The translations under genes were made by a program, and so were the position numbers. A DNA stretch of 64,000 nucleotides. Origin: an uncultured Chloroflexia bacterium (lineage in GTDB: Bacteria > Chloroflexota > Anaerolineae > B4-G1 > SLSP01). The stretch covers positions 64,001 to 128,000 of the forward strand of contig CAVVUS010000027.1 in assembly GCA_963751345.1 (NCBI GenBank), in the 5' to 3' direction. Numbering within the stretch: the first letter of the stretch is position 1; every line of letters starts with the position of its first letter. Below are positions 13,266 through 47,191 of the stretch, in pieces. Below the pieces are notes generated by a model that saw only the letters and a list, made by a program, of their open reading frames with translations, ran no database searches and was not told the origin of the DNA.

Positions 13266-14889
13266 GGCTGGGCGTCCCCTTGGATAAAGCGCACGTCGGC
13301 GGGCATACCCGGCTTCAGGAGGCCCTCTGGGTTGTCCAAGTGAAGATCGACGGCAAATACAAGATTCTCACGCTCCTCGACCGTCGCCACATTTCGCGGC
13401 GTGAACTCTGCTTGGTCCGAGATGTACTTCACGTGACCCGTGAAAGTACGGCCCGGAACGCCATCTGAGGCGCGAACGCCGTCTGAGGCGCGAACGCCAT
13501 CTACAGTCACCTCAACCGCTTGGCCCAACTGGATCTCGCCCACGCGTGTCTCAGGGATGTAGACCGTCAGTGTCATATCCGTCAGATCGGCTATGGAGAT
13601 CAACGGGGCACCCTTCGCAGCGATCTCGCCTGGGTGTGCCAGGATCTCAACGACGGTCCCTGAGATCGGGGCTGTGAGCGACAGCATCTCCCGCTCTCTC
13701 TGCAGCGCCTCAACACCGGCGTAGACTTGGTCCACCCGCGCTTTGACTGCCGCTATTTCCTCCACGCTCATACCCGCACGCAACGCGTCGACCCGGGTCT
13801 GGGCAAGCACCGCCTGCGCTGCCAGCTGCGCTTGCGCAGACAGCGCCTCATCGAGCTGTGCCTGAGTGGCCTGGGGGTTGGCCCTCTGGATATAGAGCTG
13901 GTTGAGTTTGGCCTCCAACCCATCTACTTTCGCTGCAGCAGCGTTCACCCCGACCCACGACTGCCACCATAGGTTCGGAAGTGACTGCGCATCTAGGGGA
14001 AAGACAATGTTCTTGTACACATACAGCTCGTAGTTGCCTTGATCCAAGTGGAGTTCGTAGTCATTGTATGTAAACGTGCGGTCCACAACCCCCGGCAGCA
14101 CGTCCCCCCAATCGGCCGGCAGCTGGTCGACCAGCTCATCAGGCAGGGCGTCGGTGATGAGGTCCTGCCACCGTGCCGTTGGCCACCTCGAATTTGTGCC
14201 GTCCTCCACCATCAAAACGGATATACGCCTCATCGAACGCAGCTTTCGCCACCTCCACAGCGTCTTTCTGAGCCACGGCCTCCGCGGCTCGCTCCTGGGC
14301 TGCCGCCAGTTGGCCGCGGGTCACCGCAATCTGCAGATCGATATCCTGAGGCGACGCAAGCAACGCCTGCGTATCGCTCACGGCACGTTGCGCGGCCACT
14401 TGCGCCACCTCAACCTGCGCCAATTGGGCCTCAGCCACCGCAATCTGCCCTGGCCTGGCGCCCGCTTGGGCCTGTGCGAGTCCAGCCTGCGGCAGCAGCG
14501 ACCCCCGCTTCGGCGACCGCGATCTGCGCATCGAGCATCGCCGTGTCGAGCTGGACGACGAGCTGGCCAAGCGCCACCGAATCCCCCTGCCGCGCAGCCA
14601 CATCAGCCACGAGACCCCCAAACTCACTGGCCACCGAGACCTGCCTGGCCTGCATCACGCCCGATGCGGTGAGCGGCGACAGATCCTGCGATACTCCCAG
14701 GTCATGTCGCAGTAGTTTGCCGAGCAGAGGCAGGTTGCTCCAAGACACCCCCGGTATGATGCCGCTCAGATACAATGCAACGGCCCCCATGGCCAGCACG
14801 GCCACGACGATCAGCAATCGAACGCCGTCTGAGGCGCGAACGCCGTCTGAGGCGCGAACGCCATTCGAGGCGTGCCCTCTCCTCTTCAT
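13262..14889 (-). CDS. HlyD-family membrane fusion protein, frameshifted
   Basis: ORFs 14431..14889, 14139..14627, 13262..14233; ASGVMQA, EFTPRNVAT, LKPGMPAD. Confidence 0.85.
13456..13491 (-). repeat. Two 18-bp family A units in hlyD (VRASDG x2)
   Basis: GAACGCC(A/G)TCTGAGGCGC x2. Confidence 0.9.
14820..14873 (-). repeat. Three family A units at the hlyD N-terminus
   Basis: GAACGCCGTCTGAGGCGC x2 plus a degenerate third. Confidence 0.9.
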
Positions 14890-14902
14890 CTCACACTCTC
14901 AC

Positions 14903-15918
14903 TCATTCGCGATTTCGCCCACTCGTCGATTCCCGCTTCACCGCCGAGATAAAGACATCCTCCAGCGTCGGAGCGATCCAGGCAATACCATTCACCGTAA
15001 CGCCACCCTCTGACAACACCGCCGCTACCTCGGCCTCCGAAGTCCCCGCCGTCCCGGGCGCCTCAGGCACAACCACGTGGATCTGCGCCCCATAGAGCGC
15101 AACCTCCTCGAGCGGGAGCTGCCCCGTATCCTGGGCTGCCGTCAAGATCCTCATCGCACCATCGGCATCATCGGTGTCGATCTCAAGTACCCGGCCACGC
15201 ATGCGGGTCGCCTTTAGTGCATCCGGCGTATCGAGCGCAATCAGCCTTCCCCGGCTCAGAAAACCGACCCGCTGGCACAGCTCCGCCTCGTCCATATAGT
15301 GTGTCGTCACAAGCACCGTCACGCCGCCCTTGGCCATGCCGTAGATCAGATCCCAGAACTCCCGGCGACTGATCGGGTCGACGCCCGCCGTGGGCTCGTC
15401 GAGAAAGACAACTTCCGGCTCGTGCACGATTGCGCACCCAAGCGCCAGCCGCTGCTTCCACCCTCCCGAGAGATTTGCGGTCAGGGAATGCGCACGCCCC
15501 TCAAGCCCGGCCATCTCCAGGATCTGGGTCTCGCGCTGACGTAAGAATGCTCCTGAAAGCCCATACGCTTGGCCGTAGAAGCGGATATTCTCCATGGCGG
15601 TGAGGTCTTTGTAGAGCGTGAAGAGCTGGGACATATAGCCCACGTGAGCCTGCATCGCCTTGGCCTGCTTTGAGGGATCATACCCCAAGACGCGCATCTC
15701 GCCGGATGTCGGTCGCATGAGCCCGAGTAACATCCGAATCGTCGTCGTCTTTCCCGCGCCATTGGGTCCCAACCACCCGTAGACCTCGCCACGGTTGACG
15801 TGAAAGCTCACATCCTCGACGGCTGTGAAATCGCCAAAGGTCTTGGTGAGATTGCGGACGATGATCGGGTGCTCCGCATCCGCGCCGTCACGACCCTCGA
15901 TCCGCGCTCGCCCCTCAT
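14903..15918 (-). CDS. ABC-2 exporter ATP-binding protein
   Basis: GPNGAGKT, LSGGWKQR, FLDEPTAGVDP; upstream IIVRNLTKTFGDFTAV in frame; probable ATG 15918 one frameshift away. Confidence 0.88.
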
Positions 15919-15928
15919 CGCCTCCGCC

Positions 15929-16969
15929 CTACTCGTGGGAGGGCGATCGTCTGCTTCGTGGAGGCGCTTGCGCCGTCTGAGTCGCTCCGCCGTCTGAGGC
16001 GCCTCCGCCGTCCGCGGCGCGTGCCCTGATCAGCGAAATAAAGGCCTCCTCCATCCGCGGCGCGATCTCCCGCATCCCCTGGTAGGAGATCCCCTCGGCC
16101 GTGAGCGCCGCCTCGATCTCCGGGCGGCGTTGCGCTGGGTCATCCACGAAGACGTGAAGCATCACACCATACGTCTGCACCTCCTTCACGCCCGCCAGCC
16201 CGGCGACCAGGCGCTTGGCGGGCACAAACGGAGAGGGCACAAACTCCAGGAGATGACCGGGCACCATCGTTTTGATGACATCCGGCGAGTCGTGAGCAAT
16301 CAGCCGGCCCCGATACATCAGGCCGACCCAGTTGCATCGCTCGGCTTCATCCATATACGGCGTGCAGACAAAGATCGTGACCCCTTTTTCAGCGCGCAGG
16401 CTCCCCAGGAGATTCCAGAACTCGCGGCGACTCACAGGGTCAACACCCAGCGTAGGCTCGTCCAACATCACGACCTGTGGCTCGTGGATCAGACTGCAGG
16501 CCAGCGCCAGCTTCTTCTTCATCCCGCCTGACAGCTGCTTCGCCGGTCGGTCTGTGAAATCGGAGAGACCTGCGAACCCCAGAAGCTCGGGGACGCGCCG
16601 CCGTTGGGCCTCGCGGCTCACGCCCTGGACGTTCGCGAAGAAGCGCATGTTCTCCATGACCGTCAGATCTCCGGGCAGCGCAAACTGCTGGGCGATGTAG
16701 CCCACGCGTTCGCGGATCGCGTAGATATCGCGCATCGAATCATAGCCCAGGATCTCGCTCTCGCCGGAGGTCCTGGAGAGCAATCCCAGGATAACCCGCA
16801 CCGTCGTCGTCTTTCCGGCACCGTCGGGGCCAATCAGTCCATACGTCTCACCGCGCCGGACCTGGAGCGTGACACCATCAATTGCCAGAACCGGGCCCTG
16901 CCGCGTTCGGTATCGCTTCGTCAGATCATGCGTTCGGATGGTTATTGTCCGGTCCACGAGCCCAGACAC
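15929..16969 (-). CDS. ABC-2 exporter ATP-binding protein
   Basis: GPDGAGKT, LSGGMKKK, MLDEPTLGVDP. Confidence 0.92.
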   Translation of the reverse strand: MSGLVDRTITIRTHDLTKRYRTRQGPVLAIDGVTLQVRRGETYGLIGPDGAGKTTTVRVILGLLSRTSGESEILGYDSMRDIYAIRERVGYIAQQFALPGDLTVMENMRFFANVQGVSREAQRRRVPELLGFAGLSDFTDRPAKQLSGGMKKKLALACSLIHEPQVVMLDEPTLGVDPVSRREFWNLLGSLRAEKGVTIFVCTPYMDEAERCNWVGLMYRGRLIAHDSPDVIKTMVPGHLLEFVPSPFVPAKRLVAGLAGVKEVQTYGVMLHVFVDDPAQRRPEIEAALTAEGISYQGMREIAPRMEEAFISLIRARAADGGGASDGGATQTAQAPPRSRRSPSHE

Positions 16970-17045
16970 TCCTTATCTTGGATACCCGAAACCGGAGAAG
17001 GCACTTGACCGTTGGCATATCCACACGTCTAAACGTTCAAACGTC

Positions 17046-18344
17046 TTAACGTTCAGACGCCGGATAGTGCGTGTAATTACGCAGGTCGACCACACGCCCT
17101 GCGTGCGCCCACGGAACGTCAAAATCACGTGGCAGTTCCGACGGCAACACCCCCTGATCATAGCACGTCTCCAGGGCTTGCTGGAGTCCTTTCACCCAAA
17201 TCAGGGCGTCGTCCAGTCTGCTGGGCGCGTCATCGTCCAGTCTGCTGGGGGCGTCATCGCCCCGTGCTTCATGGTTCACCAGGTAATCGGGGAACTCCCC
17301 GATCGATGTGACCGACTCCTGTGCTCCATTGACGGCCAGAGTATGCGACATCGCCGCGCGAATCCCGCATGCCAGCGGCGCGCCGGTGCCATCGCGTGGA
17401 TCGCCACGCGCCGCGTGGCTGCCACGCGCAGCGTCGATGGCATCCCAGAGTTTCTGATCCTCGTCGGCGAAGGGATCTCCATAGTCCTTGACGCGCCCGT
17501 CCGTGAAGTGCGCGAGAACGGGGTTGCCGTATGCGGCATAATCGACCACGGCATCCTCGAACTCGTAGCTCAGCACGGGACCGATGTTCTCGTGTACCGA
17601 ATGAGATGTATAGAAGAGAATCTCTACGCCTTCCTCGGTATGACACCGCAACGCGGCCGTATCGTAGTTCTCGATCTCGTTCGCGCGGTAAAGCTCGGCT
17701 TGCACGTCGACCGGGCGCGCACTGGTCTCGCGCGTTGGCCCCAGGACGTAGAAGCAGTTGTGCAGATAGTGGGCCGTCGCGTTGTTGACCGGGCTATCCA
17801 GGATCCAATCCCCGTTCGACGCTCGTAACTTGGCAGCCCAGTTGTTGCGACGGTAGTAGGAGAGGGGCCGAGGCCAGAGCACCTTGGTCCGGAAACGCAG
17901 CGGCTTGCCCAGCACCCCGGCCATAATATCGGCCTTCAGCGCCTGCATCGTGCGCGAAAAGGACCATTGGTAGCCAATCCCGACAAAGCCCTCTGCAGCG
18001 TCGTCCGCCTCCGCCATCCGCAAAGCGTCCTGGATCGTCGCGGTCACGGGCTTTTCACACAAGACGTTCGACCCGTGCGCCAACGCAGTCTCCGTGAAGG
18101 GGCGGTGGAGATGGATGGGTGCGGCAATGACCACTAACTCGGCCGAGGATGCCGCGTAGAAGTGATCCAGATCAGGATAGATCGGAATCTGACGCTCCTG
18201 GAATGCGTCCAGGAAGCGACACCCACGCGGATCCGGATCGATCCCGGCGACGAGCCGGAATCCCTCACGGTCGGAGAACAGGCGTGCGAGATAGGTGTTC
18301 CCGTAGCCCCCTAAAGCCACCATCGCGACAGTCACGTCTCTCAT
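17046..18344 (-). CDS. Gfo/Idh/MocA oxidoreductase
   Basis: ALGGYG, VLCEKP, NNATAHY. Confidence 0.88.
   Translation of the reverse strand: MRDVTVAMVALGGYGNTYLARLFSDREGFRLVAGIDPDPRGCRFLDAFQERQIPIYPDLDHFYAASSAELVVIAAPIHLHRPFTETALAHGSNVLCEKPVTATIQDALRMAEADDAAEGFVGIGYQWSFSRTMQALKADIMAGVLGKPLRFRTKVLWPRPLSYYRRNNWAAKLRASNGDWILDSPVNNATAHYLHNCFYVLGPTRETSARPVDVQAELYRANEIENYDTAALRCHTEEGVEILFYTSHSVHENIGPVLSYEFEDAVVDYAAYGNPVLAHFTDGRVKDYGDPFADEDQKLWDAIDAARGSHAARGDPRDGTGAPLACGIRAAMSHTLAVNGAQESVTSIGEFPDYLVNHEARGDDAPSRLDDDAPSRLDDALIWVKGLQQALETCYDQGVLPSELPRDFDVPWAHAGRVVDLRNYTHYPASER
17210..17257 (-). repeat. Two 24-bp family B units in the oxidoreductase (APSRLDDD)
   Basis: CGTCCAGTCTGCTGGG(C/G)GCGTCAT x2. 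Confidence 0.9.
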
Positions 18345-18858: not shown

Positions 18859-20173
18859 TCATCTGTGGGCCAGGATCATATCGATCCGCAAGATGGCCTC
18901 GTGGGTCGCACGCCCCGAATGGTAACACGCCTTCCATGGGTTGCCGATTGCCGCAACCAGCGGGTCACCGGTCTCGCTCAGCAGCGTCATCCATTCACCC
19001 AGTCTATGGTTGATCATATGCTCCCATACGAACGACCAGACAAGGTCGAACGCCTCGAAGTACTTCGCATCGCCCGTGATCTCATAGGCGTCAAGGTAGC
19101 CCACGAGCGCCTCTGCATTCTGCCAGAACTCCTTGTCGCGCACCAGAGCAGGCCCTGCGTGCGGTCCGTCGCGGTAGACGCCCCCATGCTCGCGGTCGAG
19201 GCCATAGGCTAGCGAGTGATCCACCAGATGGCGAACCACGCCTTCATAGGCGTCCCGTGGCTTGCCCAGCACCTCGCCGGCCCGAACCAGGAGCCAGGCC
19301 AACTCCACGTTGTGCCCGTAGGAGGTTGTATCAGTCGGTGCTTCGACCGACTCGCCCTCGCGGTCGGCGTTCCACGTCCGCCGGATCGCGATTGCCGGGA
19401 TGGGGCGGAAGTTCAGATCGTACTGGTTACCACCGCAGCCGTTCTCCATATCGACCATGTGCGTGAGGATCACGTCGATGACTTCCTGGAGCCGGCGGCG
19501 GTGGACCTCTTTGCCGGATGCTTGCGCCAGGACCGTGAAGCATTCCAACAGGTGCATGTGGATATCCAGCGACTTCCGATCCCCCGCGCAGAAGCCCCCC
19601 GGCGAGAGCTGCCAATCGGGCTCCAGGTTCTCGTAGTAGCCGCCGCGAGCGGTGTCGACACAGTATCGCTGCAGCAGATCGAACGTGCGCTCCGCATAGT
19701 CCAAGCCCACGCTCGTCGCCCGTGGCGAGATAATACGTGGCGAGAGCGTAGATGGCGAAACTCTGACCATAGACCAGCTTGCCATTGTCGATCATCGTGC
19801 CGTCGCGCGCCACTTTCCACGCCCAGCCGCCGTGATCCACATCCCAGAAATGATCGATGAAGAAGTCGACGCCCTGGCGTGCGTAGGGGACATAACGATC
19901 GTCGTCGGGATCGATCATATGGAAGGTGGAGAATCCCCAGATCAGGCGGGTCTGCGTGACGATATGCTTATCGAACACCGTCTGAGGCGCGGACGCCGTC
20001 CGAGGCGCGGTGTCATCCTCGATGAGTTCGCCGTTGGCATCGAAACAGGTCAGATAGCCGCCGTAGTCCTGATCGACACCGCGCAGCGTCCAGAAGGGCA
20101 TGATCCCCCGGGTCAGGTGCTCCTGTAGCTGTGCACGCGCCGTACGCAGTCGCTCCTCAATAAGTGTGTCCAC
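18859..20173 (-). CDS. AGE-family epimerase (cellobiose 2-epimerase-like), frameshifted
   Basis: PFW..GVD..YGGY, VTQTRLIWGFS, YGQSFAIYALA, HMHLLE, SYGHNVE, WQNAEA, WKACYHSGR. Confidence 0.88.
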
Positions 20174-20188: not shown

Positions 20189-21578
20189 CTATGGAAAGAA
20201 GTTCGGTAGATTCGCTCGGTGCGCCGCCAGCAGGTCCTCCATCATCGACGCTGCCACGCCGCGGTCCGTGATCGCGCCATCCAGAAGCAAAGCCTCCACG
20301 AAAAGCCTCCGGTCTCCGGTTAGCGCTGCTTCGACCGTGAGACGCGTCGATGCCAGTCTTCGCGAGATAACGCCTGCCAGCTCATCGGAGAAATCCGGCG
20401 TCTGGATCGGCAAGAGGCCAACCGCGCGTCGCGACGGCGGGGATCTCCAGGATGGCATCGTCGGGCAGGCTGGGCACAGTCCCCTGGTTGGGCAAGTTGG
20501 CCGCGAAAACCTCACGGGTATCGTAGCGAATCGCACGAATGATGTTCAGCAACTGCTCATGCTCGCCCACCGTGTGCGTGAAGATCCACGCATCCAGCGG
20601 CTCCTCCCCCAATGCCTGGGCTCGCATCCGGGCGTAGTCTCGGTCCCCCGCGGCGATCGTGCCCTCGAACGAATAGGCATCAACCCCCAGCGTCTTGCCG
20701 TAGTAACGTCCACCGGGGAATCGCTCGGGAAAGAACTCCGTGACGTGCCGATCGTTTGCGGAGGGATACGCTCCATAGGCCTCGAAGAGCGACCAGGAGA
20801 ACGGATTGTCGATGCCGAAGGTGGAAGGCGAAGCCGAGCCATCGCCCAGTCGTTCGCGAGCCACAGGCCACATATCGCGCCCGCGCCACCGAAGGTCGTG
20901 GATGAAGGTCAGGTGGTTCAGGCCCGCAAAGCGCACCGTCCAGTCTGCTGGACGCACCGTCCACGCCGTCTGAGGCGCGTCCGCTGGACGCATCGTCTCC
21001 TCCGGGGGTGCCCCCACAAACTGGGCTAGCTGCCGGCTGACGTCGAAAGTGCCATGACACAGCCCAATAACGGGCACGCCCGTGGCCTTGCGCACCGCCC
21101 AGCAGTTAGCCGTCATCGGGTTGCTGTAGTTGAAAAACCAGGCACGGGGACACTGTTCGGCCACGTCGCGGGCGATCCCGACCAGCGCCGGAATCATCCG
21201 CATGGCGCGCGAAATACCTCCCGGCATCACGGTGTCGCCTACCGGCTGGTAGATCCCGTAGGTCCGCGGGATGAAGACATCGGCTTCCCAGGCGCGACGA
21301 CCGCCGACGCCGATCGTCGAAACAACGATGTCCGCACCGGGCAGGAGATCGCGGCGATCTTCGGAGGCCTGGACGTCGATATCGGCGCCCGTCGCCTCCA
21401 CCATGCGCCGGCTCAGCCCCTCTGCCGTCTCCAGCGCCTCAGGATCGATGTCGACAAGGCCCAGCACCCACGGCCCCAGTGCCGGTGACTGGATCAAGTC
21501 GGCCACGAGCCCTTTGGTGAAGACCGCGCTCCCGGCACCGATCAGCACGATTTTCGTGGTACGTTGACGTTCCGTCAT
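20189..21578 (-). CDS. GH4 NAD-dependent glycosidase (alpha-galactosidase/glucosidase-like), frameshifted
   Basis: IGAGS, GDTVMPGG, NYSNP, GLCHG, AGLNH, DRHVTEF. Confidence 0.9.
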
Positions 21579-22431: not shown

Positions 22432-22568
22432 CTCTCTTCCCTCCTGATAGTTAGTCGTGTCAGTCCGTTAGCACATTGAACGTTTGCACGTTCGGACTGT
22501 TAGTTTCAACGTGCAAACGTTCAAACGTGCTAACAGCTTGCCCTGTGTATGTCACGGGGTCCCAACGC

Positions 22569-25088: not shown

Positions 25089-27572
25089 AAATGCCCTCTC
25101 TGTATCAGTCGTCCAGTCTGCTGGGCGCATCGTCCAGTCTGCTGGGCGCATCGTCCAGTCTGCTGGACGCGTGGTCCAGTCTGCTGGGCGCATCGTCCAG
25201 TCTGCTGGACGCATCGTCCAGTCTGCTGGGCACGCCAGTGGGCCTGGTCTTGGCTCAGCTCGAAGACCAGCACATCGTAGTCTACGACCCTCGGCACAGT
25301 AACCCTCCAGACCCCATCGACTTGCGCGACGGGGAGCGCGGCGCCATCGGAGAGCATGAATGCCCTCTCGACACTGCACCCGGCCTCCGCCGGCAGTTCG
25401 ACGATGACGTCGTACAGCGGAACGAGCTCACGGAAGAAACGTTCCCCACCTGTCAGGTTAATCAGATGCACCATGCGCCGCGCAGAGGCCTGGGTGCGCA
25501 GCGAGACCTGCAACGTCGGCGGAGCCGTTACGCGTAGCGGCAGCACGTCGTGCGCCGCCCATCGTACGGCGTTGGCGATCAATCGCTGCAGATCCGGATA
25601 GGGCACCGTCCATGCCAAGGAACCCAGGGCACCGGAGAAGTATACCGAGCGCCCACCGCTCTCAGACTCCTTGATAATCACCAACGGGTCGCCGCCCGCC
25701 GTCGTGGAAACGTCGCGGTGCCCCATCTCAGCCTCAGATGTCGAGGCCGTGGGGTAGGAGTAACCCTCCGGGAAAACGATGAACGGGGTCGACAACGTCA
25801 AGGGCACGGATGTGCCGGGCGACGCGCGACGGTGCAGTAGTCTCCCCCCATCGGAAGCACCGACGTTCCCTCCAAGCCATCGACGAGGGGATGCTGTCGG
25901 GCGATATCCATGTAGACCTGCTTGTAGCCCTGATCTGCACTCGCCATCGACGATCGGGTGACACCGCTGTAGCGCACCCCGAACACGTCCTCCAGAAGGA
26001 AGCCATCGCGCCGAAGGCCTTCAGCGTCGCAAAGCGACGTCTCAAACGTGGTGACGATGTTGCCGCCGCGCCGGACATAGCCGCGGATCGCCTCAGCCTC
26101 TTCTTCGGTCATGCAGGCCAGATTTGGCAACACAAGCACAGCATAGCGGTCCAGCAACTCACCCACGGCCTCCGTTGTAGAGACAGGGCGGTCGCCCCTC
26201 GCCGGTGTGATGCCGTCGTAGAGTGGATGCTCCGTCGCCGTTGTAGAGACGGGGCGGCGCCCCGTCTGCGGCGCTAGGAGCCGCGTCGAGATGATATCGA
26301 AGGGAATATGCGCCGCGTGCAATGCTTGCTCGATTCCCCGTATCTCCCTCACGTACCGCTTCTCGGGCTCGTCCCTGCCGTAGAAGACAAGCGTATCGAG
26401 AGAGTAGACGATAGCAACGTTGGCCCCCGAGGCATCCCCTTCGTAGTAGTCGCGGTGCGTCGCAAGAAAACCGTAGAGGTCGCGAATCACATCGAAGCCA
26501 CGGGGATCCTCGTGCACGGCCGGCGGGCCGCCCGACAGGTTCACCATCGGATCGGCACCGTTGGCCGCAATCTGGGCCAGATAGACTTTCTGCTCCGCGG
26601 GCGCCATCGCGCTCCGACGCCAGGGCCACGCGAGGAAGTAGGAAGCCACCACCCAGATCGGCGTGTCGGAGACCGACGTCATGAATCGCGCACTCTCGGC
26701 GGGCCAGCTCAGATACTGCCACGTGGCCGATCCGCTTCGCGTTCATTGTAGCGCGCTCGTGTCTGAACTTCCACCTGGACGGCGTCCGCGACCGCGGCCT
26801 GACTCTCGACGTCGATCGACGAACCCACCGTCCAGTCAGGATCCCCAAAGCAGACACTGTTGCCCATAAAGGGCATGTCGGGATCTATAGCGTGGACAAC
26901 CTCGCCGAGCTGATCGACCCGTTGGCGGGCATGCTCAATCCGCCAGGCAGTATACGTTCGCCATAGGGGGTCGGACCAGTTCACCTCTGATGGAAGCTCA
27001 CGCCCGGTCTCCTCGTAGAAGCTCCGGCGGCAATTGGGACAGTAGCAAATGGAGCGAGAGAACCCGAAGCTCCCGCCCCCGAACTTCACACAGTCGAGCG
27101 GATACCGCCCCAAGATCTCCGCTACGATCTCGCGCACGGACGCCGTCTGAGGCGCGTAGTCGGTCTGATAGCCGCCCATGGGACATGCCGCATACAGGCC
27201 GGGCACGCGCTCCACGGGACGTCCGGCTGCATCCTGGGCACACCAGTCCGGATGATCCCGCGCGGCCTGCTCCGGCACCTGGCCAAGGTCGATCATGCCC
27301 AGGGCCTTGATACCGGCGGCGTGGGCAGCCTCAACGATCTCGCCGGCAAGGTCACGACCGCCAAGATAAGGACTCTCTCGCTGATAGGCCAGCCGGGTCG
27401 GATAGGTCGTCACGTACCCGCCGACAAAGAAGCTGAAGAACGTCGCGTGCATCGAGGCCAAATCATCGATGAAGCGCTGGACGTCAAAATCACGGCAGTC
27501 CACGTCACGGATCGTGACGTGGAATCCCCGATTCCGACGCTTGAGCCAGGCGTTGCGATCTCTGCCGGTCAT
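25055..27572 (-). CDS. Putative glycoside hydrolase (GHL6-like barrel plus beta-galactosidase trimerisation domain), two frameshifts
   Basis: HPDWCAQD, ICYCPNCRRSF, HIPFDII, VLVLPNLACM, YVRRGGNIVTTFETS, MVHLINLT. Confidence 0.7.
25110..25235. repeat. Six tandem 21-bp hairpin units (family B)
   Basis: CGTCCAGTCTGCTGG(G/A)CGCAT x6; each holds the stem CGTCCAG/CTGG(G/A)CG. Confidence 0.95.
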
Positions 27573-27626: not shown

Positions 27627-30913
<3,287 letters not shown>

Positions 30914-33591: not shown

Positions 33592-34693
33592 TCAGGGTTC
33601 TAACGCTGCCTCCACCTCCGGCACCCGCAGGCCGGTCAGCGCCTGCAGTCGTTCGTAAACCCGCGAGAGTGCGGGGAAGTTGTCTGCGCATCATCTCCTC
33701 GGCCCCAGCGCGCATCCCGAGCGCCTCGGCCCCTGCCGACAGCGAAATAGTCACGCTCGCCAACCGTTTGGCGCACGCAAAGACCTCAAAGGGCTCGATA
33801 TTGTGGACCTGCCGTCCGCCAGGCTGCTGGCGCCCGCCAGGCTGCTGGCGCCCGCTCATCGCTTCGTAGGTTCGCAGTATCCTCTCCCTGACCTCACCCC
33901 CCTCTTGCGACCCGACCAGGACCATCGTCCACGCCAGATCGAAGCGCGGGTCCGAGATCTCGAACTGCGTCCAGTCAATCACGACACCGGAGCCGTCGGC
34001 GCGAACCAGGATATTCTCAGGATGATAGTCCCAGTGAATAGGCGCAGCTCGCTCACACGCCATCCCATCCCGCCGGGCAAGCAGCCAATCCAGGATAGGC
34101 AAATATCCCGGCTGGCCAAATCGATCGATGTAGGCTCGCAGAAGGCCCAAGTAATGATCCACGAAGGCATAGGGATTTTCAGGGAACGGCACCGGGAGGA
34201 CGTCAGTCAAAGCTCGCCAGTCAAGCGCATGGAGCTGCACAAAGAGCCGGCAGAAGAGCTCAAACCTCGACCGCTGCTGATCCTCCGGCCCGCTGAAGGT
34301 CTCACGCCACATCCCGTGGCCATCAATGCGCTCCATAAGGATAAAGGGCTTCCCCAGCGGCGCGTCGCTCTGCTCCAACCGCAGGACGGCAGGCACAGCA
34401 TAGCCCACGTCGTGCAGGCGTCGCACGGCATCGAACTCGCGCCCGGCCTTCGCGCCCGCGTCCTGGCCCGGATAGATACGAAGAACCAACGGCTCCCGGC
34501 TGCCGTTGCGTGCGAGATCGAACGCATAGACGTCGCTCTCCCAGCCGGCGCTGATCTCACGGAAATCGACGACCTCCGCGTCCTGATATTCCGGCACGCC
34601 GCCACGCAAATAGGTCTCCAACGCCTCCGAACGCCGTCCGAGGCGCCGCAGCCGCTCAGACGTCACGGCAGCGTCATCTTCCAGCTCATTCAT
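33592..34693 (-). CDS. APH-family phosphotransferase, C-terminal frameshift
   Basis: GWESDVY, LVLRIY, IHWDYHPENI, IDWT, DPRFD. Confidence 0.82.
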
Positions 34694-34736: not shown

Positions 34737-36737
34737 TCAGGCGTCTTGGCCCAACGTCTCCCGCAGGAAGTCGACGATAGCCGGGTAGGCTACCAGCTTG
34801 TTCTTCAACTTGGCAACCCCGTGCCCCTCGTCATCGAAGACCAGGAACCTCACCGGAATATCACGAGCCTCAAGGGCGGCTACGAGCTGCTCGGCCTCGC
34901 TCAGCGGGACCCGAGGATCGTTGCGCCCATGGATGACCATCAGGGGCGCAACGACCTGGTCAATGTGGTTGATCGGTGCAATTCGCTCCAGAAAGTCCCG
35001 GTCGCGCGCCAGGCTACCGTACTCCGCTTCCCTGTGCGCACGACGATAGCCGCTGGTGTTCTCCAGGAAGGTAGCCAGATTGCTGATCCCCACGATGTCG
35101 ACCGCGGCAGCCCACAGGTCGGGATAAGTAGTCACGGCAGAGAGTACCATGAAGCCACCGTAGCTCCCGCCATAGACGGCGATCCGGCTTCCATCGATCT
35201 CGGGACGTGACCGTAGCCAGTATACGGCGTGGGCCAGATCCGCCACCGAATCCATGCGCTTCTCCACGTCGTCGAGGTGGCTGTACCGCTTCCCGTAGCC
35301 CGTCGACCCTCGCACGTTAGGCACCAAGACGGCGTAGCCGTGGTGCAGCAGGTATTGTATGAGAAAGCTGAAACCCGGGCGAGACTGTCCCTCCGGTCCG
35401 CCGTGGACGATGACGACGACGGGCAGCCGCGCATCCACCGCCGTAAGGACAGAGCGCTCGGCGGCCTGTGGCCTGTAGAACCATGCAGGAATCCGCCGCG
35501 TCTCGCCGTCCTCGTCGCGATCGAACGTTGGATAATGAACCAGCACGGGATCGTAGAACGTAGATACCGGCAGGCCTCCATGGGACGACCGCGTTAACGG
35601 ATGCACCTCGTCCGCCACGAGATCCCAGAGATAGAGATCCGCCGTACGCGTCGCGCTGGAGAATGAGAAGGCCAGGGCGGTACCATCCGGTGAGAAAGCC
35701 AGGGCATCACCAATGACGACACCCATCGCCTCCGGGCCTGATGGGCACTCTCGTATCTCCCCACTCTCGGTATCCATCAGCACGACCCGATCTGCACCAT
35801 CCACGTTCACCGTATAGGCAAGCTTCGTCCCGTCTCTCGTGATCGCCAGAGAGCCGCAATCCCAGTTCGGGGCAGCGATGCGCTCAAGCTTTCCCGACGG
35901 TCGGCCGCCCTCAGCCGCAACTCGGCTGTACTCAGCCGCGGCTCGGCTGTACTCAGCCGCAAGATCCACCCGCGCTACGTACAGGAAATCGGCGTCCAGA
36001 TCAGTGACCAGATAAAGTGTGTCGCCATTGGGTGCGCTCGCCGTCCGAGGCGCGCTCGCCGTCCCAGGCGCGGTCGCCGTCCGAGGCGCATAGTGCGGGT
36101 AAAGATAGCGCACCGGCGCATCCGAGCCCAGCAGCGTCCTCGCCTCACCTGTCTCCAGATCGATCTCCAACAGCGTATGATCGAAAGAACTGGCCGTCCT
36201 TACGGCAATCACATGCCGTCCATCGGGCGCGAAGACCAGATGCCATAGGTATCCGCGCGTATCGTTCTGCCAGACACACACGGCCCGGCTCTCGGGCTCG
36301 CTCACGTCCTGCACGTAGAGGTCGAAGAGGGCCGGATCCCGGCGGTTGGCGGCGAAACTGATCCGTTTGCCATCGTCTGACCAACTGCCGAAGAGATGCA
36401 TCGCGTCCTCAAATCCTTCGGTCAGACATCGGACCGAACCCCGGTCCACGTCCAGAAGGAAGAGCTGATGCTGCTCGCTGCCTCCCACGTCGCTCACATA
36501 GAGTAACCGTCCGTCACCAGGCGCTGGGGAGTAGGCCACTTCGGTGACGCGATCTGACGCAAACGACAGCTGATCGGGCCACGGAATGGCGTTGGCATTG
36601 ACGTCGTCGACGGCAACCTGCCACACCTGTGACAAGCCGGTGATGTCGGTGAGAAAGGCAACGTGTTTGCCGTTCGCTCGCCAGGTCGCACCATAGGCCT
36701 GACGGATATTGAGATAGCGCTCAATCGACCAAGACAT
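34737..36737 (-). CDS. S9 prolyl oligopeptidase/acylaminoacyl peptidase
   Basis: Beta-propeller, HGGPEGQ, GGSYGG, DPRVP, DEGH. Confidence 0.92.
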   Translation of the reverse strand: MSWSIERYLNIRQAYGATWRANGKHVAFLTDITGLSQVWQVAVDDVNANAIPWPDQLSFASDRVTEVAYSPAPGDGRLLYVSDVGGSEQHQLFLLDVDRGSVRCLTEGFEDAMHLFGSWSDDGKRISFAANRRDPALFDLYVQDVSEPESRAVCVWQNDTRGYLWHLVFAPDGRHVIAVRTASSFDHTLLEIDLETGEARTLLGSDAPVRYLYPHYAPRTATAPGTASAPRTASAPNGDTLYLVTDLDADFLYVARVDLAAEYSRAAAEYSRVAAEGGRPSGKLERIAAPNWDCGSLAITRDGTKLAYTVNVDGADRVVLMDTESGEIRECPSGPEAMGVVIGDALAFSPDGTALAFSFSSATRTADLYLWDLVADEVHPLTRSSHGGLPVSTFYDPVLVHYPTFDRDEDGETRRIPAWFYRPQAAERSVLTAVDARLPVVVIVHGGPEGQSRPGFSFLIQYLLHHGYAVLVPNVRGSTGYGKRYSHLDDVEKRMDSVADLAHAVYWLRSRPEIDGSRIAVYGGSYGGFMVLSAVTTYPDLWAAAVDIVGISNLATFLENTSGYRRAHREAEYGSLARDRDFLERIAPINHIDQVVAPLMVIHGRNDPRVPLSEAEQLVAALEARDIPVRFLVFDDEGHGVAKLKNKLVAYPAIVDFLRETLGQDA
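36036..36089 (-). repeat. Three family A units in the S9 peptidase
   Basis: [18 protein letters not shown], 54 bp. Confidence 0.92.
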
Positions 36738-36769
36738 ACTCGTGCCTCCTGAAAACAGCCCTAAGGTCC

Positions 36770-39029: not shown

Positions 39030-40342
39030 TCAACGCTGACGGTACGCTTGTGGAACGTAGGGAGCTAGCTGCTGCGCAGCAAAGACTTGGTCGAGCCGCG
39101 CGAAACGCTGCCGTCCGTCCACCAACGGGATCGAAGGCCAGCCGTCACCGATCAAGGGGCGCGCATAGCGAACAAAGTCGTCGGTGACGTCCGTGCGTGA
39201 TGGCGCGATCCACTTGTCGGGGAAGGTGCGCTCCGAGTTCGCTACGAGTTCCAGTCCCACCTTGTCGTATCGGACGCTGTAGATCTCGCCCGGCTCGCGC
39301 AAGATCGTGGACATATACCCCGACCCGTCCTCGACGGCAATCTGAACGGCCTTCCAGCCGACGCGGTAGGCCTCCTCCAGGTCGATCGTGGAAGCATAGA
39401 TGATGTTGTGGCGCTGATCCGTGCCGGGCACGTTGCCCCGCGCCGAGCCGCGGGCTGCCAGCCCGGCCTCGTTGAGGTAGTTGACCACGATCTGCTCCAC
39501 GGTCATCTCGCTGGACGAGAACATTGTGTGGCCGAACGAGTCCTTGCGCTCGCCGATATCGCCAACGTCGAATCCCTCGCTGACCACCACTACGGCGCGA
39601 CCGCGCACCTTCAGCAGATCGTTGACGGCATCCGTCAGCGCCGGCAGGTCGAGGTTGGACTCCCGAAGGAAGATCAGCAGCGGCATCTCCCGGTGCGGAT
39701 CGGCAAGCCGGGCAGCCGCGGGGATAAAGCCGATCTTGCGCCCCATCGCCTGGATCACCAGCACCGGATCCGAGGGTGACGAGCCCGCGTTCTCCTGATC
39801 TGCGTTCTGGATGTTCAGTGCCCAGTACCGGGCCACGCTCCCATAGCCGGGCGTATGGTCGATGATCTGGAAGGCACCGCCGTCTGAGTGCGCTGTCCCC
39901 CGACATCGTTGTCGATGGTCTTGGGTACGCCCGTGGCCACCAGGTCCAGCCCGCGCGCCTTCGCCAACTGCGCGACCTTGTGCGCGGTATCCATCGAGTC
40001 GTTGCCACCGTTGTAGAAGAAGTAGCCGACGTCGTGGGCCCTGAGCACCTCGATGATGCGCTCGAAGTCCTCGGTCTGATTCGCCTTCAGCTTGTAGCGA
40101 CACGTCCCGATGGCACCGGCGGCAGGCGTTGTGCTGAGCAGGGCAATCTCCTCGTCGCGCTGGGCGGAAAGATCGAGGAGATCCTCCGTCAACACCCCCT
40201 CGACGCCATGGAACCCCGCATACACCGTGCCGAACGTGTCGGGATAGGCCTTGCAGGCCTCCAGCACGCCGCGCAGTGACGCGTTGATCACCGGCGTAGG
40301 ACCGCCGGACTGGGCGACGATGACGTTCCTGGGTTTCGGCAT
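39030..40342 (-). CDS. PPi-dependent phosphofructokinase-family kinase, frameshifted
   Basis: QSGGPTPVIN, GGNDS, PKTIDND (PPi signature), MGRKIG, VSEG. Confidence 0.85.
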
Positions 40343-40437: not shown

Positions 40438-41919
40438 CTAGGCCTCCCCCGGCGGGACCTCCATATCCTCCCACACGGTATGGAACGAGCCGTCCTTGTC
40501 TACCCGCCGGTAGGTATGCGCGCCGAAGTAGTCGCGCTGGGCCTGGGTAAGGTTCGCGGGCAGACGCGCGCTCCGGTAAGCGTCAAAGTAAGCCAGGGCC
40601 GAAGAGAGTGCCGGCACAGGGATGCCGTTGGCGATGGCGTAGGCCAGGACCTTGCGCAGGGCGTCCTGGCGCGAGACGACCGCCTGCCCCAACGCCTCGT
40701 CCATCAGCAAGTTGTCGAGATCCGGGTTAGCGGCAAAGGCAGCCCGGATGTCTTCCAGGAGCGTCGCCCGGATGATGCACCCGCCGCGCCAGATCTTGGC
40801 GATGTCGCCGAAGTTGAGATCGTAGTCATACTCGGCACTTGCCGTCCGGAGTAGCGTGAAACCCTGGGCGTAGGAACAGATCTTGGCGACGTAGAGCGCA
40901 TCCTCCAGCAGGTCGATGAACTCCTTCGCGTCCCCGTCGAATGCCGGCGTGGGCCCTGAGAGCGCCTCGGACGCCGCGACACGCTCGTCCTTGTACGCAG
41001 AGATGATGCGGGCCTCCACCGCGGCGTTGATGGTCGGCGTCGGCGCGCCGACATCCAACGCGTCCTGCGACGCCCACTTCCCGGTGCCCTTCTGCTTTGC
41101 CTCATCCAGAATCAGATTGACCAGGGGTTTGCCCGTCTCGTCATCGATCTTGGCGAAGATGTCCGCGGTGATCTCGATGAGATACGACGCCAGCTCGCCC
41201 TCGTTCCACTTGGCGAAGATCCGGTGGAGCTTCTTGGCCTTCAGACCCAGCCCGCGGCGCAGGATATCGTAGGCTTCACCAATCAACTGCATGTCGCCGT
41301 ACTCGATCCCATTGTGAACCATCTTGACGTAGTGGCCCGCCCCGCGGGGACCGATATAGGTGACGCATGGCTCACCGTCAACCTTGGCGGCGATGGCCTC
41401 CAGCACCGGGCGCATCCGCTCCCACGCCTCGCGCTGCCCGCCGGGCATAATCGACGGGCCCCATAGCGCGCCATACTCTCCACCGCTCACGCCGGTGCCG
41501 ATATAGCGGATCCCCATCTCCTCCAGTTGCTTGGTGCGCCGCTCGGTGTCGGTGAAGTGGGAGTTCCCGCCATCGACGAGCAGGTCATCTGGATCAAGAA
41601 GCCCCTTGATGTCGCCGATGACCGCGTCGACGGGCTTGCCGGCGGGCACCATCATCATAATGCGCCGCGGCTTCTCCAAGAGGTTCACAAAGGTCGCCAG
41701 ATCGTTCGCCCCGAACAGATTGCGGTGCGTCCCATCGCCCTTCTCCGCATGGCCCTCGAAGGCCGAGACCTTCTCCGCGTCCAGGTCATAGCCCGCGACA
41801 CGGAATCCATTGCGCTCCATATTGAGCGCCAACATCTGCCCCATCACGCCAAGCCCGATGAGGCCAATATCCGCCGTCTGAGGTGCCTCCACCGTCCCAG
41901 GTGCATCCGCCTTATTCAT
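40438..41919 (-). CDS. gnd: NADP-dependent 6-phosphogluconate dehydrogenase
   Basis: IGLIGLGVMG, DGGNS, VKMVHNGIEYGDMQ, QKGTGKW, QAQRDYFGAH. Confidence 0.97.
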   Translation of the reverse strand: MNKADAPGTVEAPQTADIGLIGLGVMGQMLALNMERNGFRVAGYDLDAEKVSAFEGHAEKGDGTHRNLFGANDLATFVNLLEKPRRIMMMVPAGKPVDAVIGDIKGLLDPDDLLVDGGNSHFTDTERRTKQLEEMGIRYIGTGVSGGEYGALWGPSIMPGGQREAWERMRPVLEAIAAKVDGEPCVTYIGPRGAGHYVKMVHNGIEYGDMQLIGEAYDILRRGLGLKAKKLHRIFAKWNEGELASYLIEITADIFAKIDDETGKPLVNLILDEAKQKGTGKWASQDALDVGAPTPTINAAVEARIISAYKDERVAASEALSGPTPAFDGDAKEFIDLLEDALYVAKICSYAQGFTLLRTASAEYDYDLNFGDIAKIWRGGCIIRATLLEDIRAAFAANPDLDNLLMDEALGQAVVSRQDALRKVLAYAIANGIPVPALSSALAYFDAYRSARLPANLTQAQRDYFGAHTYRRVDKDGSFHTVWEDMEVPPGEA

Positions 41920-41948
41920 GGTACCCTCCTTCACGTACGAAACTGACT

Positions 41949-43139: not shown

Positions 43140-43240
43140 GTAGATCCTCCTGCGAGTTGGAATGGTCGCTGGTTGAAGATATCCCGCTGCCGGCTGACGA
43201 TTGGCGGGTGACCTGAAGGTGTCCGGTCAATCGTCACTCG

Positions 43241-44503: not shown

Positions 44504-44565
44504 AGTTAGCCTCACTTATCGATCAACGACGTGACGGGTGACGATCCGGCGTCTGTCCAGACCCC

Positions 44566-45855
44566 TCACTTCCTCACGTGCATCTCCCCGTACACCACCC
44601 ACTTATACGTCGTCAGTTCCTTCAGACCCATCGGGCCCCGCGCGTGGAGTTTCTGGGTGCTGACCGCGACCTCGGCGCCGAGGCCGAACTCACCGCCGTC
44701 ATTGAAGCGCGTGCTGGCATTGACGAAGACGGCCGCAGAATCGATCTCGTTCACGAAGCGTGTCACGTGGTGCCAGTCGTTGGAGAGGATACCGTCGGAG
44801 TGGAAGGTACTATGCTCCTGGATGTGCGCGATGGCTTCATCGAGATCGTCCACCACTTTGACGCCAAGGACGAGCGACAGCCACTCCTGGTCAAAATCCT
44901 CCGGGCCTGCCTCCCGCACGACAGTGTCGTTGTTACCTGACAGGATATGCCACGCCTCACCTGCCGCCCTTAGCTCCACGCCGTCATGTCCCAATCGTGC
45001 GGCGACCCAGGGCAAAAACGAGGCAGCAATGTCCTTGTGAACCAACAGCGTGTCCAGCGCGTTGCAGACGCTCGGTCGCTGCACCTTGGCATTCTGAATG
45101 ACATTCAGCGCCCCCTCCATATCCGCGGAAGGTTCAACATAGAGGTGGCAAATCCCGAGGCCCCCGGTGATCACCGGAATGGTGCTCTGCTCGCGACAGA
45201 GCCGGTGAAGGCCTGCTCCACCGCGGGGAATGATCATGTCGACGTAGGCATCCAGCTTCAGCAGCGCGGTGACCAGTGTCCGGTCCGGGTTCGAAATATA
45301 CTGAACCGCATCGGAAGGCACGGAGGCCTTGGCCAGCGCATCCTGGATGACCTTGGCCAAGGAGAGATTGGAGCGCAGCGTCTCGCTGCCCCCTCTCAGG
45401 ATGACGGCGTTGCCGGTCTTCAGCGAGAGCGCCGCAATATCGACCGTCACGTTGGGGCGAGCCTCATAGATGACACCCAGGACGCCAATCGGCGTGCGAC
45501 GCTGCTGGATCTGGAGCCCGTTGGGCAGCACGCGGCCTTCGATCACCTCCCCCACAGGGTCGGGCAGCGAAACCACATCCCGGGTCCCTTCAGCTAGCTT
45601 CTCCACACGTGCATGGGTCAGCAACAGGCGGTCCAGGAGCGCATCACTGAGTCCCTTGGCGCGGGCAGCCTCAACGTCAAGTGCGTTCTGGGCCAATACG
45701 GTCTCGGATTGCGCCTCGATCTCGTCGGCAATCATCATGAGCGCCGCGTTCTTCTCGTCCGTGGTCAACGTCGCCAGGTGCCGGGATGCTGTCCTGGCCC
45801 GCCGCCCCATATCGACCAGATCCACCTTCATCTCCGCCATCGCTCTTTGGTTCAC
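44566..45855 (-). CDS. proA: Gamma-glutamyl phosphate reductase
   Basis: [43 protein letters not shown]. Confidence 0.96.
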
Positions 45856-45897
45856 TACTACTCCTCCGTCGTGAGACCTTTGGGGGTTCTAGTCCCC

Positions 45898-47191
45898 CTA
45901 CAACAGGATCAAGTCGTTGCGGTGTATGGCAACCGCACCATACGTATACCCCAGCTCGTCGGCGATCTTATCCGAGTGGCTTCCCTTGATGCGCTCAAGA
46001 TCATCACTTGGATAGCGTGCGACCCCGCGTGCTATCTCACGGCCCATCCCCGCAGCAACGGGGCGCTCGCCGGTCTGCTGGCGCCGCCAGCAGCTGGCGG
46101 CCCGATCCGCGCACTCCCGTCTGCAGTATACCACCGGAAGCCCCCCTATGACCTTCACCGCCTTCCTCGAACACCGAGACCGTATCCCCTCGATCGAACG
46201 ACCCATCCACCGCCACGATACCTGCCGGTAGCAAACTGCGCCCCTCGTAGAGCAGGGCTTGGGCCGCCCCGTGATCGACGACGATGTGTCCGGTATTCAC
46301 AGCTCCTGCCAGAATCCAGCGTTTCCGGTTCTCGGGTGGCGTGTCGAGCGCCAGGAAACGTGTGCCCAACGACTCGCCTGCGGCGATGCGCGAAAGCACG
46401 TTAGGTTCACCTCCATCAGCGATGACCACCTCGGTCCCGGCGCGACGGGCGACGGTCGCGGCCTCAAGCTTCGTTACCATCCCCCCGACACCCAACCCCG
46501 TCTTGCTGTCGCCGGCGAGCGCGCGCAGATTCCCATCGATCACGCGAACCTCACTGATGAGCTCAGCTTCAGGGTCTCGCCGCGGGTCAGCGGTGAACAA
46601 GCCTTGTTGGTCCGTCAACAAGATCAGCAGGTCCGCATCGGCCAGCACGGCAACGAGCGCGGAGAGGTTATCGTTGTCACCGATCTTGATCTCCTCGGTC
46701 GCGACCGCGTCGTTCTCGTTGATGATGGGGATGATCTTGTGCTCGATGAGCGTCTGCAGGGCATCCTGTGCGTTAAGAAAGCGGCCGCGGCTGGCCACGT
46801 CGCCCTGCGTCAGCAGAAGCTGTCCGACGTTGAGACCATAGATCTCGAAGAAACGTTCCCACATCAACATCAGCCGGCTCTGTCCCACCGCAGCCAGCAT
46901 CTGCTTTGTGGCCACCGACGCCGTCTGAGCGCGCTGAGGCGCATCCGCCGTCTGAGGCGCAGATGCCGTCCCAGGCGCGGACGCCGTCCCAGGCGCGCCC
47001 GCAACCCCCAACCGCTCGCGACCGGCAGCTATCGCTCCCGAGCTGCACAGGACCACCTCGTGCCCTTCCTGCTGCAGGCTCGCACATTGTCGGGCCAGAT
47101 CCACCATGCGCGGCGGGCTGAGCCGATGGGTACCATCGGTCAGCACGCTCGTGCCCACTTTCACAACGATCCGTTTGTACTGTAATGCCAC
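45898..47191 (-). CDS. proB: Glutamate 5-kinase with PUA domain, C-terminal frameshift
   Basis: [51 protein letters not shown]. Confidence 0.95.
46916..46996 (-). repeat. Four family A units (one internally duplicated) in proB
   Basis: [27 protein letters not shown], 81 bp. Confidence 0.92.

Follow-up and report, generated by a model that had tools for sequence, protein, structure and literature searches.

A dispersed 18-nt DNA repeat in conserved genes of an uncultured Anaerolineae genus, and how it may spread

The 64-kb stretch of DNA here analyzed (hereafter the window) corresponds to positions 64001-128000 of contig C27 in a 5.40-Mb, 49-contig, 93% complete assembly (G000) from an uncultured genus of Anaerolineae (Chloroflexota), and is syntenic with a second genome of the genus, G002, at 86-89% identity. 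Its minus-strand genes carry a short repeat, termed family A, whose unit is formed by a 15-nt core, GCGCCT[C/G][A/G]GACGGCG, and a spacer that is mostly of 3 nt (range 0-5 nt), giving 18 nt, and which is arranged head to tail in arrays of 1-7 units. All window genes carrying units lie on the minus strand, and their identities, assigned by Pfam, include an HlyD-type fusion protein, two ABC ATPases, an N-acylglucosamine 2-epimerase (AGE), a GH4 glycosidase, a GHL6 protein, a beta-galactosidase, an APH-type kinase, an S9 peptidase, a PFK-like protein, 6-phosphogluconate dehydrogenase (gnd) and glutamate 5-kinase (ProB). The sites are the following (coordinates of the window; ORF, open reading frame):

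13456..13502, minus strand: HlyD-family membrane-fusion gene (ORF 13262-14233); 2.6 units, spacer TTC, read V-R-A-S-D-G.
14819..14862, minus strand: small ORF 14431-14889, no Pfam match; 2.4 units, spacer TTC, at the N-terminus.
15047..15061, minus strand: ABC ATPase ORF 14903-15811; single unit with one mismatch (GCGCCCGGGACGGCG).
15961..16020, minus strand: C-terminal tail of ABC ATPase ORF 15929-16969; 3.4 units, one spacing of 17.
19973..20008, minus strand: N-acylglucosamine 2-epimerase (ORF 19427-20173); 2 units, read A-P-R-T-A-S-A-P-Q-T-V-F.
20943..20978, minus strand: GH4 glycosidase (ORF 20382-21593); 36-nt gain, A core (20964-20978) joined to a 21-nt CCAGCAGACTGG-family unit.
26260..26274, minus strand: degenerate unit (2 mismatches) fused to another palindromic repeat (GACGGGGCGCCGCCCCGTC).
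27141..27155, minus strand: GHL6-domain ORF 26709-27623; single unit, also present in G002.
28266..28334, minus strand: beta-galactosidase small-chain part (ORF 27627-28784); 3 units, spacings 36 and 18; not in G002.
28704..28752, minus strand: overlap of two lacZ ORFs (28571-30895 and 27627-28784); 2.8 units.
34632..34646, minus strand: APH-family kinase ORF 33476-34729, near the N-terminus; single unit, read R-R-L-G-R-R.
36036..36089, minus strand: S9 peptidase (ORF 34737-36788), beta-propeller part; 3 units between Y-A-P and N-G.
39876..39895, minus strand: PFK-like ORF; degenerate unit (AGCGCACTCAGACGGCGGTG), one base short relative to G002.
41869..41908, minus strand: 6-phosphogluconate dehydrogenase (ORF 40438-41934); 2 units (GCACC variant), after codon 5.
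46937..46996, minus strand: glutamate 5-kinase (ORF 46037-47191); 3.3 units, in the loop between GRERLGY and TVATKQ.

A unit was found at each of the 15 sites for which the initial annotation of this DNA had listed one, those at 15047, 26260 and ~39876 being degenerate single units. Tandem Repeats Finder delimited 18-nt arrays at 13456-13502, 14819-14862, 15961-16020, 28266-28335, 28704-28752, 36034-36089, 41869-41908 and 46937-46996. The arrays are open throughout within their host ORFs, no stop occurring inside any window array, and are read in three sense frames, as A-P-(Q/R/G)-T-A-x, x-A-S-D-G-x and R-L-x-R-R-x, just as that annotation had described. Pattern GCRCCTSRGACGG has 21 matches in the window, all 21 on the minus strand, whereas dinucleotide-preserving shuffles are expected to yield 0.01 and none of 100 reached 21. 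Similarly, allowing up to 2 mismatches to the full 15-mer GCGCCTSRGACGGCG gives 29 matches, of which 27 are minus-strand and 2 plus-strand, versus 2.43 expected and a maximum of 6. A lack of enrichment over a GC/codon-matched null had been named beforehand as one of the observations that would speak against the repeat; over the shuffles, the motif is strongly enriched.

When 235 units were collected by position, the consensus base was present in 206-228 of them at 12 of the 15 core positions. The remaining ones are position 6 (T in 190), position 7 (C in 188, G in 41) and position 8 (G in 122, A in 105), the main loop variants being three, CA, CG and GG. Spacers are mostly constant within one array and different between arrays, with TCC, GAC, GAT, GAA and GAG as the commonest. 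A stem of 4 G-C pairs (C2-G15, G3-C14, C4-G13, C5-G12) is formable in 210-220 of the 235 units; its positions are nearly invariant, so they provide no evidence of covariation either way. Upon folding as single-stranded DNA, five family A stretches proved no better than their shuffles (z 0.10, 0.08, 0.83, 0.43 and -0.02), and this, together with a stem of only 4 bp, does not sustain the former description of the repeat as a hairpin unit.

A genome-wide scan with the initially proposed pattern, in which strand, frame and location were recorded for the multi-copy arrays, returned 147 matches, and the 21 of the window represent 14% of them in 1.2% of the DNA. The 15-mer occurs in the genome 129 times exactly and 99 times with one mismatch, versus 3 and 18 in a reversed-sequence control, and the arrays with at least one good unit number 153, of which 49 have at least two. 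Of these 49 multi-copy arrays, 33 run in the sense of the ORF that encloses them (frames 20/6/7), 10 are antisense, using two frames, and 6 lie in non-coding DNA. The claim that all copies sit in coding sequences and in one orientation is consequently valid for the window, where all are on the minus, coding strand, but not for the genome. The use of three sense and two antisense frames, as well as of non-coding DNA, identifies family A as a dispersed repeat of DNA and not as a protein motif.

The share of multi-copy arrays in coding DNA (43 of 49, 88%) equals that of random 51-nt windows under the same classing rule (1301 of 1500, 87%), indicating that family A neither avoids nor seeks genes. 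Within genes there is a 3:1 sense bias, compared with 621 versus 680 for random coding windows by strand. The core also lies on the G-rich strand in 34 arrays and on the C-rich one in 11, with 4 flat, and both biases (33:10 for gene orientation and 34:11 for GC skew) are inseparable, their discordant classes holding 5 and 5 arrays. Spacing is 18 nt in 60 of 84 steps within coding arrays, on the contrary being 17 nt in 6 of 9 steps within non-coding ones, and 15 of the 43 coding arrays fall in the first or last 10% of their ORF. This frame-dependent period and the open frames suggest that the units are translated, and the hosts probably tolerate the inserts. Copies are found on at least 25 contigs, with regional clustering that places 7-10 units in several 20-kb bins.

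Orthologous sites were then inspected for empty alleles, and they support the claim that removing the units restores canonical sequence. For gnd, all 10 more distant loci of the same genus (74-81% protein identity) start M-x-K/R-A-D/E/N-I/F-G without units, the insert after codon 5 amounting to 12 extra residues in G000 (2 units) and 18 in G002 (3 units). The AGE site is empty in 10 of 11 genomes, these ten reading D-T directly followed by D-K-H/Y-I-V-T-Q, while G002 carries exactly one 18-nt unit and G000 two. Neither the A core nor the CCAGCAGACTGG unit is present in GH4 of 11 of the 12 genus genomes; G002 shows one CCAGCAGACTGG-family unit, and G000 the same one plus an A core and a second CCAGCAGACTGG-family unit. 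HlyD lacks units in the 3 genomes aligned (G002, G008, G017), and all 8 further S9 orthologues are empty, reading Y-x-P directly followed by [DNSE]-G; the S9 array itself has 3 units in G000 and 5 in G002, three of the latter with a GTT spacer. Units thus lengthen conserved enzymes (gnd, HlyD, AGE, GH4 and S9) at positions where orthologues carry no insert. In ProB, the stretch between GRERLGY and TVATKQ is a loop of five residues in five genomes; in G000 and G002 it holds family A units, and in G003, G012, G016 and G031 other inserts. Modelling of ProB with AlphaFold2 from 11 aligned rows gave a result of low quality (mean predicted local distance difference test score, pLDDT, of 50.4), with the insert as coil of pLDDT <50, like much of the protein, and this model is not used as evidence.

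Comparison of the window between G000 and G002 revealed 64 gaps of at least 6 nt, and those at arrays are mostly whole units. Gains of G000 are +36 at 13456, +36 at 14840, +18 at 19972 and +36 at 20943, and those of G002 are +36 in S9 and +18 in gnd; two further genome regions display the same pattern of whole-unit gain and loss. Positions 14840 and 12162 each show a lone degenerate unit in one species and added canonical units next to it in the other; in particular, 36 nt are extra in G000 at 14840, where G002 has only one degenerate unit-like stretch. This presence of canonical beside degenerate units, together with the foreign GTT spacer in S9 of G002, indicates that new units were brought in and not copied from their neighbor. 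At 15047 a different repeat occupies the same place in G002, and the C-terminal tail of the ABC ATPase ORF 15929-16969 is not alike in both genomes. Finally, lacZ is split into two overlapping ORFs (overlap 28571-28784) exactly at a family A array (28704-28752), which relative to G002 has two 1-nt deletions and 19 extra nt that shift the frame, the array being in frame in G002.

Searching 185,579 species genomes for two units side by side yielded 46 stretches, 44 of them in five metagenome-assembled genomes labeled Chloroflexia, Anaerolineales, Anaerolineae (two) and Thermoflexales, and the remaining 2 as single matches in Myxococcota-type genomes. Among the 22 genomes of the genus, exact cores number 123 in G000, 160 in G002, 47 in G016, 34 in G012 and 24 in G004, with at most 2 in each of the other 17. 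Additionally, five metagenome contigs carry at least 3 and up to seven adjacent units, in frame in long ORFs. Contigs of four public runs also cover parts of the region, but they are of low depth and come from relatives, the highest share of sampled words in any listed run being 0.19; one of them, from run X3, skips 36 nt in the S9 array, and apart from it and a 21-nt gain in run X1 (see below) these contigs contribute no further information. Taken together, occurrence and copy-number differences support family A being lineage-restricted and recently active.

Family A is, therefore, very probably a lineage-specific dispersed DNA repeat of an uncultured Anaerolineae genus, translated wherever it lies in a gene and kept as 18-nt arrays at tolerant coding places. 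Its mode of spread is a more tentative matter. The complete account that we put forward, to which we grant somewhat less than an even chance, is that of a translated micro-repeat similar to repetitive extragenic palindromes (REPs), shaped by unit-wise copying from existing arrays, slippage and a frame filter; copy-choice without a dedicated transposase is, taken alone, equally plausible without being probable. According to it, core and spacer would be copied from an existing array into a new site either by template switching during replication or by ectopic gene conversion. The nascent strand would exit and re-enter at the same few bases of microhomology, so that each net gain would consist of complete units bordered by a short direct repeat. 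Donors would be mostly nearby, which would explain regional clusters and spacers common to neighbors, and later units would be gained or lost by slippage and exchanged between arrays, with selection removing frame-breaking or harmful copies. As part of the firmer reading given first, arrays of 18-nt (six-codon) period very probably persist in coding DNA because they keep the frame and occupy tolerant positions (termini, linkers, variable loops), and those of 17- or 20-nt period occur mainly outside genes.

Several observations fit copying from existing arrays, namely the whole-unit gains, the junction repeats, the sharing of spacers, the clustering and the partial starts. Arrays up to 30 kb apart have a spacer in common 10 times versus 5.1 expected (p 0.036), and when all arrays are considered this happens 22 times versus 8.6 expected, a value that none of 2000 permutations reached. 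Direct repeats that include the spacer flank the inserts at gnd (GGCRGAT), HlyD (GAYGGYGTTC) and 14840 (GGCGTTC), and the first unit is incomplete (GGCG-NNN) in about half of the arrays.

Other observations weigh against this account. Native sites (gnd, AGE, HlyD, S9; 31 in outgroups) were no more core-like upon local alignment than random 30-mers (all p at least 0.15), leaving the microhomology, of a few bases plus the spacer, as a qualitative argument that may not exceed chance, and in just 8 of 36 arrays is the first core preceded by a triplet identical to the first spacer. The presence of copies on so many contigs implies that many events were long-range, which is unusual for template switching, and since the arrays are not notably structured (z ~0), hairpin-stalled replication is no obvious trigger. 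Furthermore, the same three loop variants recur everywhere and the loop [G/T]C[A/G]GAC is in excess on other stems as well (294 hairpins versus ~100 in two permuted-loop controls; stems CGCC 130, CCGA 17, CCCA 12), a hint of recognition by a common factor. The preference of the core for the G-rich strand (34 arrays versus 11) points in the same adverse direction, a strand preference of this kind being known for single-strand transposons. Two insertion rules were also considered and are not claimed: a 3-nt target duplication, which fits only the 8 of 36 arrays, and insertion just 5' of GAY, which fits 4-5 events and depends on the placing of ambiguous junctions.

An alternative is an enzyme-mobilized REP-like mini-element, a possibility that we regard as rather unlikely though deserving consideration, in which an HUH/Y1 nuclease similar to REP-associated tyrosine transposases (RAYTs), or an unknown one, would read the stem and the GAC motif, cut in or beside the spacer and move or copy whole units, insertion recreating the target and hence leading to tandem arrays. 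It would be consistent with (i) an identical 15-mer at more than 100 places on many contigs, (ii) a loop motif common to families with different, still complementary stems, (iii) the above-mentioned strand bias, (iv) the clean single-unit insertion of 18 nt in AGE of G002, with only 2 nt of junction ambiguity, (v) the three Y1_Tnp genes of G000, and (vi) A cores in the tips of other palindromes (GTGCCGGGGAGC downstream of a Y1_Tnp gene; the family B unit in GH4). Nonetheless, the Y1_Tnp gene in question (C19:139446-139973), flanked by GTGCCGGGGAGC palindrome copies of which the downstream one bears the core in its tip, appears frameshifted near its start, and long inverted repeats of an unrelated kind border the other two. 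At this IS200-like locus (G000:C19:138105-141362, 1200-2060) the palindrome reads GTGCCGGGGAGC...GCTCCCCGGCAC, and some of its genome copies have an A-like core in the tip, in either orientation. The closest relative of the C19 gene (61% identity) is in G005, which has 0 cores, while G002, with the most cores, reaches only 31%; and Y1_Tnp matches in the core-rich G000, G002, G016, G012 and G004 are 3, 2, 1, 3 and 1, versus 26 in G007 with 2 cores. Thus, the presence and number of Y1_Tnp genes do not follow family A across the 22 genomes, and a RAYT link was dropped. The absence of a mobilizing enzyme from the window, stated in the initial annotation, agrees with no Y1 transposase being on its contig, and reverse transcriptase RVT_1 (PF00078) was not found in G000 at its 93% completeness; no candidate mobilizing enzyme emerged from Y1_Tnp and RVT_1, the only families searched. 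Hence, the RAYT/HUH TnpA or reverse transcriptase flanked by the motif that had been envisaged comes down to one Y1 gene with a single core in a palindrome tip, not co-distributed with the family. Array ends at varying points of the unit, with about half of the starts partial, also disagree with an enzyme, as do a unit shorter than any REP or REP-derived REPIN in the passages of PMC3733652 considered here and a head-to-tail order that, according to them, is absent or under-represented.

Independent local tandem duplications, selected for a useful peptide (A-P-x-T-A-x linkers) with a convergent or protein-driven sequence, are very improbable. In-frame local duplications do occur in the genus, as illustrated by the 18-nt repeat in ProB of G003, and the genome has many short tandem repeats with peaks at periods 12, 15, 18 and 21; that G003 repeat has only two exact matches, both in its own array, and was ruled out as another dispersed family, being purely local. 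The frame and strand data contradict such an origin for family A: the same 15 nt occur in three sense and two antisense frames and in non-coding DNA, their conservation at 12 of 15 positions is far above what a peptide would demand, and native sites are unlike the unit. There is similarly little chance that family A is an uptake-signal-like or binding-site motif spread through molecular drive by biased uptake or repair, in the manner of the DNA uptake sequences (DUS) and uptake signal sequences (USS) of Neisseriaceae and Pasteurellaceae, motifs that accumulate by molecular drive. It would share with them being a short over-represented motif tolerated in genes, and the complement of its core contains GCCGTCTGA, which matches 9 of 10 bases of what we take to be the Neisseria DUS. 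Since the two variable core positions fall on the bases presumably most conserved in DUS, this likeness is probably due to chance, and only 123-160 copies per 5-6 Mb, the strand bias, the tandem arrangement and arrival by insertion instead of point changes in existing sequence also argue against it. Regarding an assembly or polishing artefact, 74 isolated 1-nt differences between G000 and G002 in 64 kb, several splitting genes, recommend caution; yet genomes assembled separately, as well as metagenome contigs, have arrays at the same orthologous sites while their flanks have diverged and their copy numbers differ, and low-depth contigs of other public runs cover array flanks with unit-sized differences, making this explanation practically negligible. 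The spreading, non-autonomous element of the initial annotation keeps its conjectural character, with no co-distributed enzyme among the two families searched and with enzyme-free copying fitting the data at least as well. More broadly, family A and its sister families with [G/T]C[A/G]GAC could conceivably, though we doubt it, be an undescribed class of "frame-neutral" micro-repeats, with no element-encoded enzyme or with one structure-specific host factor, acting as a main source of loops and indels in housekeeping enzymes genus-wide; their units would be so short and so tuned to six codons that genes would be no forbidden zone for them.

Family A is not the only repeat in these genes. A second tandem family (~21-nt unit, CGTCCAG-CAGA-CTGGACG, minus strand) lies in frame at 25109-25231, 17209-17259 and 20943-21000, has the CAGAC motif in common with family A, the two being joined into 36-nt composite units in another part of the genome (C14); it reaches 5.9 copies at 25109-25231, and the array 25105-25235 folds better than shuffles (z -4.2). 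Other short repeats in tandem, of 18, 21 and 25 nt and containing small palindromes, occupy 33816-33855, 35910-35962 and 38907-38964, and a contig of run X1 displays one extra 21-nt unit at 35925. Outside genes, stretches of ~70-90 nt at 33525-33597 and 43151-43240 are not in G002, one of them with two copies of CCCTGAG...CTCAGGGCAAGCTGTT, seemingly a small repeat, and 8/16-nt AACGTT-rich repeats (AAACGTTC) are found at 17025-17059, 22508-22534 and 50523-50590, the 7-mer GAACGTT being among the commonest in tandem-repeat units genome-wide (20 arrays). Tandem Repeats Finder returned 898 rows for G000, with peaks at periods 12 (138), 15 (112), 18 (144) and 21 (51), an unusually rich set of in-frame size.

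The base-level accuracy of G000 appears doubtful in view of the 74 isolated 1-nt indels relative to the syntenic G002 (e.g. at 357, 435, 1753, 2517, 19701 and 20186), many of them in conserved coding DNA and some splitting genes, such as AGE, divided at 19701 into 19427-20173 and 18859-19785. They reflect either base-calling errors of the assembly or widespread decay, and the frameshift at the lacZ array, with 1-nt differences at 28714 and 28745, and the base missing at 39890 may likewise be errors or real decay. At the 3' end of proB (PUA domain, 46040-46110), the reading frame of G000 departs from that of orthologues, close to a place where it differs by 10 nt from G002; the latter has there a different 18-nt tandem repeat (E-R-H-Q-P-G, three copies). 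In addition, G000:C14:287001-307000 matches two places in G002, at 93% and 86-89% identity, suggesting either a large duplicated region in G002 or a mixture of two related strains in this assembly, whose stated contamination is 7%.

Textbooks present small bacterial repeats as "extragenic" elements. A repeat with a coding share at the level of random placement, and with a period of 18 nt in coding and 17 nt in non-coding DNA, offers an unusually clean view of selection on the reading frame. It also provides a natural series of loop insertions in 6-phosphogluconate dehydrogenase, glutamate 5-kinase, S9 peptidase and beta-galactosidase, with empty alleles in sister species, useful to study insertion tolerance and the origin of new protein segments. 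If it spreads free of enzymes, it would be a sequence behaving like a mobile element through replication errors alone; if an enzyme were found, this would act on the smallest known mobile unit. In practice, arrays of this sort exaggerate differences in protein length and can disrupt gene calling in metagenome-assembled genomes.

Among known systems, family A resembles Rickettsia palindromic elements (RPEs) and REP/REPIN while being far shorter, as initially proposed, with a unit of 18 nt versus 20-40 nt for REPs, in the descriptions drawn on here, and ~100-150 nt for RPEs, as generally known. RPEs have, besides that length, long palindromic arms, occur as single copies and belong to an obligate intracellular alphaproteobacterium, whereas family A presents 18-nt units in tandem, with variable copy number, in a free-living Chloroflexota host. 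It accumulates, like DUS/USS as commonly understood, as a short over-represented motif tolerated in coding DNA, with partial sequence likeness to DUS, but in far fewer copies, by insertion, in tandem and with a strand bias. With variable-number tandem repeats it shares periods that are multiples of three and unit-wise changes of copy number between close relatives (gnd 2 vs 3, AGE 2 vs 1, S9 3 vs 5); however, the unit of such repeats is local to one gene, as in ProB of G003, and that of family A is the same at more than 100 loci, its core being in 153 arrays and native sites not being core-like, so that the unit does not derive from local gene sequence. An IS200/IS605 element is not supported either, since 18 nt leave no room for two end hairpins and no Y1 gene is co-distributed, and a retroelement finds no reverse transcriptase in G000 by the PF00078 search.

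The closest parallels lie in RPEs and REPs. In-frame insertion into unrelated conserved genes with the ORF staying open is a property of RPEs (cited in PMC3733652, and otherwise general knowledge) that family A displays at gnd, HlyD, AGE, GH4 and S9, all empty in orthologues. REP/REPIN and their RAYTs, including the GTAG- and CGTC-tagged super-families, were treated by Di Nocera et al. 2013 (PMC3733652), and, as far as the passages considered here go, REPs are, like family A, short, GC-rich, palindrome-containing, dispersed and species- or genus-specific, with some copies inside genes and read through, and with CGTC families that lack a linked transposase; the complement of the family A core also contains CGTC. 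On the contrary, in those same passages REPs span 20-40 nt, with a stable stem-loop and stems of 5-13 bp, and family A is of 15+3 nt, folds no more stably than shuffles and has a stem of 4 bp. The REP tag is an unpaired end, while family A has no GTAG and its CGTC spans the border of stem and loop, and the stems of 8-9 bp with leading A-T pairs of CGTC families (PMC3733652) are both missing from it. REPs are mostly intergenic and often in inverted pairs, with head-to-tail dimers absent or under-represented (PMC3733652), whereas family A is arranged head to tail and is coding in 43 of 49 arrays, and no REP-flanked, co-distributed RAYT matches its distribution. Literature full text provided no description of such arrays in Chloroflexota, although the supplementary tables of intragenic REPs in PMC3733652 may list closer cases. 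Family A thus shares the logic of REPs and RPEs and departs from REP/REPIN, as described in the passages considered, in size, stable stem, end tag, extragenic location and inverted pairing with a linked RAYT, being a micro-repeat of six codons that runs head to tail, is tolerated in coding DNA, was recently active in one lineage of Anaerolineae and is related in kind to REPs and RPEs.

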